Positions 14,401-43,928 of a stretch of DNA of 48,097 bases are shown piece after piece. A model generated the notes under the pieces. It was not told where the DNA came from. It ran no database searches and saw only the letters and a list, made by a program, of their open reading frames with translations. How positions within the stretch are numbered: the first letter of the stretch is position 1; each line of letters starts with the position of its first letter. The position numbers and the translations under genes were made by a program. The DNA is from a virus (taxonomy: Duplodnaviria; Caudoviricetes): positions 1 through 48,097 of the IMG/VR virus record IMGVR_UViG_3300025723_000004, one strand, 5' to 3'.

Positions 14401-14474
14401 TTGCACTGGCTGGATTCGAACCAGCGTTTTCGGGATTATGAGACCCGCGAGATTGTCCGCTTCTCTACAGTGCG
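14401..14474 (-). tRNA. tRNA with CAT anticodon, initiator (fMet)-like; no encoded CCA
   Basis: Cloverleaf CGCACTG/CAGTGCA (C1:A72 mismatch), D stem GAGA/TCTC (A11-U24), anticodon arm CGGGT-CTCATAA-TCCCG, T arm GCTGG-TTCGAAT-CCAGC. Confidence 0.88.
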
Positions 14475-20818: not shown

Positions 20819-20890
20819 TTGCGCAAATGGGATTTGAACCCATGACCTGTAGGTTATGAGCCTACCGAGCTACCACTGCTCTATTGCACA
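20819..20890 (-). tRNA. tRNA with CAT anticodon, initiator-like; no encoded CCA
   Basis: TGTGCAA/TTGCGCA acceptor, D stem GAGC/GCTC (A11-U24), GTAGG-CTCATAA-CCTAC, ATGGG-TTCAAAT-CCCAT. Confidence 0.92.
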
Positions 20891-42135: not shown

Positions 42136-42603
42136 TTATCGGTTATAAGGGCTTATGTAATACCTTGCGGTGTACGAAAATTGCACGGGCGCGCTTACCG
42201 TGCCTGAACTAACCGCCTGCACCAAGTAATACACAAACGGCACCGTATTTTTGGTAAACTGCGCCACGTTGGTATAAGTAGGCGTTATCGGCCCCAAATA
42301 ATATTGCGTGCTGGTAATGGTAGGGGTGCTTACATACGCTGCGGAGTCGGTCAAAGCATAGTTGACACCGTCGGTAGAGCTGTATAAGTAAGCCTTGCCC
42401 GCCAATGTGCCGGAAAGCTTGTTTACGCTTACCTGAATACCCAAAGCAGAATAGCCGGAAGTTGCTGGTATTACCCTGCTTACTGTATCGGCATTGGTGA
42501 GGGTATCACCCGCTTGCAACGGGAATTTGTACGCATAACCCGATTGCGCATGGCTGATACAAACAGAGGCTACCAAAGAAAGAATGAATAAAAGCTTTTT
42601 CAT
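42136..42603 (-). CDS. Signal-peptide-bearing beta protein directly after the major capsid gene
   Basis: MKKLLFILSLVASVCISHA-Q; beta-sandwich-like mature part. Confidence 0.65.
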   Translation of the reverse strand: MKKLLFILSLVASVCISHAQSGYAYKFPLQAGDTLTNADTVSRVIPATSGYSALGIQVSVNKLSGTLAGKAYLYSSTDGVNYALTDSAAYVSTPTITSTQYYLGPITPTYTNVAQFTKNTVPFVYYLVQAVSSGTVSAPVQFSYTARYYISPYNR

Positions 42604-42671: not shown

Positions 42672-43721
42672 TTAAGACTGTGATTGTCCAAATTCATAGA
42701 TAGGTGTTTCACCGCTTACGCTGATAGGGGCAGTGTTAAAGGCAATATCCACAGACAATTCTAAGTCCATGTGAATATCTTGCACGGTACCGCCAGCGGC
42801 TGAGGTGTCTTGTTTTTGCGCCCAACCACGAACGGCATAAGTGAGGCCAATACCTGAGGCATCAGGCACTATGCCAAATCCACCGTTGTAGCTTTCGTAG
42901 TCTCCGAAGCCGTCCCTGTTGATTTTTGGTATCCATGGGATAACAGCAAAAGAGGCCTGTGGCAGCACGATGGCGCAACCATTAGGGTAAGCCTCGGCAA
43001 CTTCATTACCCAATACCTCATGCTCCATAATCCCGTTAGGGTTGTAACTTTGGAATTGGTAAGCCAAGTTTTGGGCATTGCCGTTGCCTTGGTACATGTC
43101 AAACTGCGCCTGCTTGAAAATGCGAGGGTCGGCCACTACGTCCAATTTGTCGTAGTATTTGTTTTGGCGCATTACGCTTGCCGCATTTTGGAAGAAGAAA
43201 TTTAACTGGTCGGCGGAGTTTTCAAAAGCAAAAGTGGTACCATTCCACAAGGCGTTTCTTGCAGCGGTTGTGTAAGGGGCTGTTTGTGTACGGTTATTAT
43301 GCAGCTGCTGCACAATGTAGGTACCAATACGCTCACGCAATATCCTTTGCTTGTCCATTATCATGTGGTCCAGCAAAGTCATGGTGTCAAACACGTTGTC
43401 CATGCCTACCTGCATGTTAATACCCAAAGGCTCGCTGAAGGTTACCCACGAAAGGCTTATCTGCCCTGAGTCGCCTTGTACGCCTGAAGGTGCATAACTA
43501 CGTGCCGTGCCATTGGTGGCGGCTGTCTTTTTAAGGTAGTACGTGTAAACACTCCTTTTGTCGGATTGTTTTATTTGCTCTACGTTAGCCAGTATGTAAT
43601 CACTGTACGTAAGAGCTTGGCGCAAAATGGGGTTTTGAAGCTCCCTCAATTCCGCTGCGTTGTATTTTCTGTTAATTTTTGACTGAAAGGCCAATAGGGC
43701 CGATGCGACGAAATTTGCCAC
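42672..43721 (-). CDS. Major capsid protein
   Basis: 349 aa after the scaffold gene; own promoter and leader; downstream hairpin at 42619..42635. Confidence 0.75.
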   Translation of the reverse strand: MANFVASALLAFQSKINRKYNAAELRELQNPILRQALTYSDYILANVEQIKQSDKRSVYTYYLKKTAATNGTARSYAPSGVQGDSGQISLSWVTFSEPLGINMQVGMDNVFDTMTLLDHMIMDKQRILRERIGTYIVQQLHNNRTQTAPYTTAARNALWNGTTFAFENSADQLNFFFQNAASVMRQNKYYDKLDVVADPRIFKQAQFDMYQGNGNAQNLAYQFQSYNPNGIMEHEVLGNEVAEAYPNGCAIVLPQASFAVIPWIPKINRDGFGDYESYNGGFGIVPDASGIGLTYAVRGWAQKQDTSAAGGTVQDIHMDLELSVDIAFNTAPISVSGETPIYEFGQSQS

Positions 43722-43855
43722 TGTGTTTAGATTTACACAAGTGAACTAAGCAACCTGCTTATAATGCTGTGGGTAACCTACCCGTCAAATTTTGGGACAC
43801 CGTCCCGGTGGATTGTGAGGCACCGCCCCGTTGGATTTGAAAAGCACCGCCTTTC
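43719..43855 (-). ncRNA. Structured 5' leader: five GGU-loop hairpins at 23-24 nt period plus a start-codon hairpin
   Basis: GAAAGGC-GGT-GCTTTTC, GGGGC-GGT-GCCTC, GGGAC-GGT-GTCCC, GGGTA-GGT-TACCC, TAAGCA-GGT-TGCTTA. Confidence 0.75.
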
Positions 43856-43868
43856 GGGGATAAAAGTA

Positions 43869-43885
43869 GTAAATATTTTATTTAC
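43869..43885. promoter_or_regulatory. Late-gene palindromic box, copy 4 (GTAAATA-TTT-TATTTAC)
   Basis: Perfect arms, between the terminator and the capsid leader. Confidence 0.75.
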
Positions 43886-43898
43886 CAAAATAATTTAA

Positions 43899-43928
43899 TA
43901 AAAAGCCCCCTGTAAAAACAAGGGGCTT
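43899..43928 (-). terminator. Intrinsic terminator after the portal-scaffold operon
   Basis: AAGCCCCTTG-TTTTTA-CAGGGGGCTT followed by TTT. Confidence 0.7.

Follow-up and report, generated by a model that had tools for sequence, protein, structure and literature searches.

A conserved array of G-centred hairpins in the major capsid gene leader of a family of tailed phages

Results

The window, by which we mean the whole 48,097-base record analysed here, is a complete phage record with terminal repeats of 127 nt; it encodes an integrase and a CI-like repressor, which identify the phage as a temperate tailed phage. Its head module is encoded on the minus strand (Table 1). The major capsid gene was assigned from the 48.7% identity of its product with the annotated major capsid protein of phage Pan5 (L007, ON968456.1) and from a match of the family profile to the PDB 9ww9 capsid protein (E = 1.6e-14). 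A Flavisolibacter protein sits in the cluster of a 59%-identical capsid, a 45% relative comes from Puia, and members of the capsid family occur in 10 of the 401 Chitinophaga-family genomes, so the host is probably a member of the Chitinophagaceae. The 68-aa ORF between the scaffold gene and the terminator matched no protein family; the scaffold-capsid interval is a hot spot of small inserted ORFs in many loci, and these always lie upstream of the terminator-promoter-array unit. Two tRNA genes are found at 14401-14474 and 20819-20890 (-), and the gene in the cement position, 42136-42603 (-), begins with a stretch that by eye is hydrophobic and signal-peptide-like.

Table 1. Features of the head module and the capsid leader, in positions of the window
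Feature	Position	Strand	Remarks
Head module gene order		-	portal, 67-aa ORF, 193-aa gene, probable scaffold, 68-aa ORF, terminator, leader, major capsid, cement, adaptor
Small conserved gene between portal and scaffold, 193 aa	45022..45603	-	candidate reader
Probable scaffolding protein, 279 aa	44181..45020	-	candidate reader; assigned from position and helical/coiled-coil model
Inserted ORF between scaffold and terminator, 68 aa	43975..44181	-	outside the array element
Intrinsic-terminator-like hairpin, then U run	43903..43928	-	11 pairs; top-ranked site
Bacteroidota-type promoter match	TTTG 43889-43886, TACTTTTA 43868-43861	-	overlaps palindromic box
Palindromic box, 19 bp	43886-43868	-	one of five minus-strand copies
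Hairpin 1, centre 43847	43839..43855	-	7 bp, one G-U; GGU loop
Hairpin 2, centre 43823	43817..43829	-	5 bp, one G-U; GGU loop
Hairpin 3, centre 43800	43794..43806	-	5 bp; GGU loop
Hairpin 4, centre 43777	43771..43783	-	5 bp; GGU loop
Hairpin 5, centre 43754	43747..43761	-	6 bp; GGU loop; ends 25 nt before start codon
Start-masking hairpin	43719..43743	-	pairs all three GUG bases; -8.1 kcal/mol; 8-nt loop
Major capsid protein gene, 349 aa, GUG start	42672..43721	-	phrog_7231

Between a Bacteroidota-type promoter box and the capsid GUG lie five GGU triloop hairpins with a period of 23-24 nt. The initial annotation had described these hairpins, and its centres, GGU loops and loop-closing pairs (C-G in three, A-U in two) were all confirmed on the minus strand, as was its observation that the stems differ while pairing is kept and that the non-Watson-Crick pairs are G-U. 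Dinucleotide shuffles of the 144-nt leader gave at least three same-loop triloop hairpins in 0 of 20,000 cases (maximum two), and no other 144-nt stretch with more than two such hairpins was found on either strand in the rest of the 48-kb genome. For 43700-43900, the z-score of plain folding reaches only -1.71. Hairpins 1, 3, 4 and 5 are retained in the whole-leader fold with pair probabilities of 0.62-0.99, and hairpin 2 is opened (probability 0.00), early coding sequence pairing instead (-50.2 kcal/mol for the whole-leader fold versus -40.0 kcal/mol for the local fold).

The upstream terminator and the palindromic late box that had been noted ahead of this unit are both present. The terminator presumably ends the upstream scaffold transcript. 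TTTG sits 17 nt upstream of TACTTTTA, a combination that we take to be a match to the Bacteroidota housekeeping promoter; the late box overlaps it, and the putative transcription start is placed from this match. Hairpin 1 begins about 5 nt past the promoter box, so that it probably forms the 5' end of the capsid mRNA, with the array filling the 5' leader. No terminator-like site was predicted in the interval from the array to the capsid start; such sites occur downstream of the capsid start, at 42635-42619 and 39247-39225. The location of the capsid-gene box between the two promoter elements suggests that it is an operator for a late regulator. Five copies of the box precede late genes in the window (1446, 28691, 34348, 43886 and 47558, minus strand), and similar boxes precede the arrays of many relatives, where closer promoter matches occur, e.g. 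TACATTTG and TAACTTTG. In L024 and L136, arrays are present where promoter box and terminator were not found; thus uncoupling from the scaffold operon is not the whole rule.

Capsid homologs were gathered from viral, metagenome and genome collections (116 loci). After 20 exact leader duplicates and three others were dropped, 93 loci with distinct leaders and sufficiently long proteins were kept, and nine added genome regions brought the set to 102, in which some near-duplicates remain. None of the 76 candidates from a genome scan with the close alignment was a relative, and a viral scan with the L206 capsid as query found nothing. In the clade of the window, 13 of the 14 capsid leaders contain two to five NG(U/C) triloop hairpins (shuffle p ≤0.014 each), so the refutation test proposed earlier, in which homologous leaders would lack the array, did not refute it; L054 is the only clade leader without any triloop hairpin. 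Phage Pan5 has four GGU hairpins in its capsid leader. Of 38 gaps between hairpins, 30 span 21-25 nt, and in the clade the loop is GGU in 28 of 44 units and UGU, AGU, CGU, UGC or CGC in the rest, as found with a detector demanding NG[UC]. A different common element (AUAAA, a hairpin and GGUUGUAUAU) occurs in the capsid leaders of L054, L082 and L133, twice in L054.

Inside a single genome, the loop is constant while the stems differ. Across the 44 units, each of stem positions 1-5 shows 3-6 pair types, and the fifth pair, which was left out of unit selection, occurs in 42. The covariation check proposed for related leaders came out in favour of the structure: in a ten-leader alignment of the last three hairpins, two-sided changes were present at 12 of 14 base pairs, 94.9% of cells were paired (slid controls, 17-59%) and 0 of 500 shuffles reached any covariation measure, the stretches having been picked around known hairpins, so that this is not a blind test. 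This shorter alignment, where L017 and L047 have hairpin 1 shifted by one column, was used for covariation after a whole-region MAFFT alignment misaligned the units. Single non-canonical pairs on the sense strand are five G-U versus one A-C in clade A, and 15 G-U versus two A-C over all classes, where 11 represent one related class C position. The linkers are A-rich, with A at the first three positions in 40, 33 and 29 of 55 units.

More distant capsids retain the array design under other loop types. Flavobacterium-type phages carry GGUA-led loops of 4-6 nt with a period of 23-25, and a long-loop class, found in Chitinophaga, Flavipsychrobacter and Parabacteroides prophages, carries purine-led loops of 6-9 nt with a period of 26-27. 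All loop classes have a G-centred core in common, and the array is kept across capsids down to about 25% identity. Triloops are present also in two or three distant lineages, and tree-based change counts indicate that the triloop is probably the ancestral type. For 47 loci, the distribution of loop class takes two changes, the minimum, on the capsid and scaffold trees and four on the portal and small-protein trees, a congruence that would follow from plain linkage too, since the array lies between the capsid and scaffold genes. One host family holds both types (triloop in six genomes, long-loop in three), and a single loop type spans Chitinophaga and Parabacteroides.

The array is specific to the capsid gene. 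With one detector, at least two motif hairpins were found in 57 of 102 capsid leaders (25, 22 and 10 by class), a count that is partly circular because the classes were defined from the same leaders; free of this circularity, the controls gave 0 of 395 for other leaders (scaffold, portal, small gene, cement, adaptor and tail tube; scaffold 0/88, tail tube 0/63) and 0 of 92 for antisense. Some of the 45 loci that score below two hairpins have other loops by eye. None of the six loci in which the capsid gene starts no more than 34 nt from the scaffold stop has an array, and lack of room alone may account for this in short intergenic regions. Within 5-9 kb of flank, it is the sole cluster in seven of eight clade loci, none being called in the eighth. 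Scans of DNA alone with narrow patterns led to the same place: all four arrays among 62 matches, and the one array among three matches of a second scan, precede the capsid family of the window, and in 151 host-family genomes one of 11 matches was an array, located in a prophage capsid leader.

The capsid GUG start has A at -3, -6, -12 and -13. In the accessible part of PMC7797042, A at these positions is the initiation signature of Bacteroidota, and structure around the start region reduces initiation. The start-masking hairpin holds -12 and -13 in its loop and -3 and -6 in its stem. This hairpin had been taken for a sixth unit pairing the start codon; pairing of the GUG was upheld, and membership of the repeat was not, as its 8-nt loop is different. 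Eight of the 14 clade leaders have a separate start hairpin of -4.6 to -8.6 kcal/mol, differing in sequence and pairing one to three start-codon bases; it is weak or missing in the other six and in the Flavobacterium-type class. The start-masking hairpin covaries in the window's subclade. The array, by comparison, lies outside the ribosome site in all loop classes, where the last hairpin ends 20-55 nt before the start codon and never overlaps it; in 11 of 17 triloop leaders this end is 21-28 nt before the start, and in the others it is farther upstream. A conserved long-range OFF fold with the coding start is weakly suggested by pairing that is slightly better with own than with swapped coding sequence (p = 0.017 in A, 0.014 in B and 0.28 in C), a signal that is driven by few loci, has no common structure and is uncorrected for relatedness. 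In long-loop leaders, a hairpin frequently spans roughly -25 to -5 and masks the A-rich region, not the start codon (L127, L128, L131, L025-L027, L069, L129, L073, L136 and L035).

Conserved loops on freely changing stems imply a ligand, and the occurrence of triloop and long-loop types within one host family favours a phage-encoded reader. The candidate readers are the capsid protein, the scaffold and the small portal-scaffold protein. The scaffold candidate has Atlas neighbours with Phage_scaffold (16%) and DUF6651, and its model gave no PDB match. The small protein holds a mildly basic domain of about 65 aa, present in 80 of 93 loci and confidently modelled (pLDDT 88.6), for which fold searches gave no match (best Z 3.9) and the Atlas comparison was uninformative. 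It is the only candidate with net positive charge in most groups, the scaffold and capsid proteins being net acidic; neither it nor the scaffold matches a known RNA-binding fold. In the capsid, scaffold, small protein, portal and adaptor alignments, no columns track loop class above controls, and no residues track array loss above control groupings. In L023, L081 and L119, extra copies of the small gene immediately follow the capsid gene; in L125 they precede it.

Discussion

The array is a real, conserved and uncatalogued cis-regulatory RNA element. The comparison of capsid leaders with Rfam that had been proposed yielded no family at the gathering threshold: the Rfam 15 search of the window returned two tRNAs only, the best other hit (E = 0.33) being far below gathering, and that of 20 related loci returned one tRNA and no GP20-a or GP20-b. 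We found no description of such an array in a literature search from which most subscription papers fell outside. GP20-a, GP20-b and other candidates are structured but uncharacterised RNAs located immediately upstream of phage head genes, and the accessible part of the paper on them mentions five candidates upstream of a major capsid domain (PMC10690425); the array may be among its 10,006 candidates.

Several known systems bear a likeness to the array. The CsrA/RsmA targets and CsrB/RsmZ resemble it in that many short hairpins offer one loop motif to several protein copies (PMC4347634, accessible part). The CsrB analogy of the initial annotation fails, since CsrB/RsmZ loops are GGA whereas the array loops are NGU (all five GGU in the window), and CsrA was found in neither the one phage genome nor the five prophage-carrying host genomes searched, which are possibly incomplete (control positive in 3 of 14). 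In addition, the array is a cis-leader fused to the coding sequence, whereas CsrB/RsmZ is a free-standing small RNA with its own terminator, and, unlike CsrA targets, the array has no Shine-Dalgarno overlap. In the coat operators of RNA phages (MS2, PP7) and in T4 gp32/RegA, a structured leader is recognised by a phage protein; the MS2 operator is a single hairpin with a bulged A that contains the start codon, and the activator Com of phage Mu activates mom by opening a start-masking stem. These systems use one site at or adjoining the start, whereas the array belongs to a tailed DNA phage and offers two to five periodic units that stay outside the ribosome site, and its hairpins, in contrast to the MS2 operator, are unbulged, multiple and end at least 20 nt upstream. 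A pseudoknot forms the T4 gp32 operator (PMC10690425, accessible part). Covariation, constant loops and spacing, strand bias and gene specificity support part of the initial interpretation, a multivalent protein-binding RNA platform at the capsid gene. The scaffold of P22 controls its own gene. There, a head-assembly protein is thought to sense assembly and control translation (10.1101/2022.12.13.520362, accessible part), a likeness to the array that extends to the logic and not to the site, which is on the scaffold mRNA in P22 and on the capsid gene here, no scaffold leader (0/88) having the motif.

The reading that we favour, with somewhat less than even confidence, is that the array docks several copies of a phage head protein and thereby raises capsid translation. 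The capsid gene, with its own promoter behind a terminator, would be uncoupled from the scaffold operon, and the reader would be made from that operon, with the scaffold as first choice and the small portal-scaffold gene as second. The reader would recognise each stem plus its NGU loop and load cooperatively at steps of about 23 nt; once bound, it would protect the mRNA 5' end and/or open the start-masking hairpin, and capsid output would be matched to the supply of the assembly partner. A masked start on a gene that needs high translation, together with a non-blocking strip of hairpins, fits activation better than steric repression. Where the start-masking hairpin is missing, activation would act via stability or ribosome recruitment.

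Autogenous repression, the main rival, is possible, though we consider it doubtful. Free capsid, or free scaffold, would nucleate on the hairpins and block the start site by spreading over it or stabilising its hairpin, and prohead assembly would remove the repressor. Restriction to its own gene is the usual pattern of autogenous control, and the element does occur at the capsid gene only; loop class fits the capsid and scaffold trees equally well, and periodic spacing suits an oligomerising protein. Against this, the hairpins stop 20-55 nt short of the start codon, unlike an occluding operator, the start-masking hairpin would be redundant, and the capsid protein is net acidic and has no class-tracking residues.

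It is unlikely that a host factor is the reader. In that case the 30S subunit, ribosomal protein bS1, or a protein of the RRM or cold-shock type would use the hairpins and A-rich linkers as a standby site or enhancer, or as a shield against 5'-end decay, making capsid translation constitutively high. The A-rich linkers and a G-centred loop in all classes, readable by one host protein, would suit this, as would the failure of sequence and fold comparisons to pinpoint a phage reader; bS1 may matter in Bacteroidota (PMC7797042, accessible part). Yet prophages within one host family differ in loop type, a single type is found in both Chitinophaga and Parabacteroides, the array is absent from other late genes in high demand, the tail tube gene for instance (0/63), and the only array among the 11 narrow-pattern matches in 151 host genomes is a prophage leader. 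RbpB is described as having a preference for single-stranded regions, and binding of G-containing tetraloops by it found no support (PMC11697453, accessible part).

The favoured docking of a head protein could be extended to an RNA-templated head-assembly checkpoint, in which scaffold oligomers on the array would switch capsid translation on and catch the nascent chains, loop and reader co-diverging as an orthogonal code for each phage lineage; we regard this as quite unlikely. The array may also have a role as an assembly RNA.

An antitermination signal, by which RNA polymerase would be modified as it enters the capsid-tail operon, seems improbable. The nut and put elements are promoter-proximal RNAs that promote terminator read-through. 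The array of the window lies close to the promoter, where a long late transcript is predicted to begin, and terminator-like sites follow farther on; its lineage-specific loops may resemble boxB. The array was not found after the other four late boxes, however, its distance to the start codon is conserved, it occurs without a promoter box in L024 and L136, and the start-masking hairpin points to translation.

We attach very little credence to the earlier suggestion that the array is a decoy or antitoxin, or is processed to a small RNA, and would neutralise a capsid-triggered host defence, although the units are periodic and would be co-expressed with capsid. Type III antitoxins such as ToxI are near-identical tandem repeats that fold as pseudoknots, whereas the array units differ in their stems and are absent from the 20 largest repeat families shown. 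The array has no terminator before the gene and is continuous with the capsid reading frame, has no Rfam match, and persists to about 25% capsid identity, which would exceed the usual defence arms race. Loop-linker pseudoknot covariation is absent (p = 0.31 in A, 0.41 in B and 0.12 in C, linkers swapped among units); a letter shuffle (p = 0.014 in A, 0.028 in B) indicated at most slight generic complementarity, and a loop-linker mini-pseudoknot was rejected. Least probable of all are DNA-level operators or cruciforms, which the interrupted palindromes adjoining the promoter might suggest, as the arms vary freely within one genome provided pairing is kept and single non-canonical pairs are mostly G-U on the sense strand.

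To our knowledge, the matching of capsid protein to scaffold in tailed phages is poorly understood beyond P22. The array is a defined RNA element that can be mutated, exists in three natural loop variants and comes with a short list of candidate readers. Since prophages are available in cultured Chitinophaga and Parabacteroides strains, and the isolated phage Pan5 has the GGU form, the question is directly testable by loop swaps. The array would also add a rare example of translational control that operates where no Shine-Dalgarno sequence is present, and hairpin-protein pairs specific to each lineage could become orthogonal RNA tags.

Pan5 is described as a Pseudanabaena cyanophage, and its head module and leader are those of the Bacteroidota-type family. 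The accessible part of the Pan5 paper notes co-existing bacteria and leaves Bacteroidota unmentioned (PMC9837993); its true host may be a co-cultured bacterium. Host labels may also be wrong for L126, a phage contig that belongs to the family but lies in a Methylococcaceae-labelled bin, and for L008, a 'Rhodobacteraceae phage' record.
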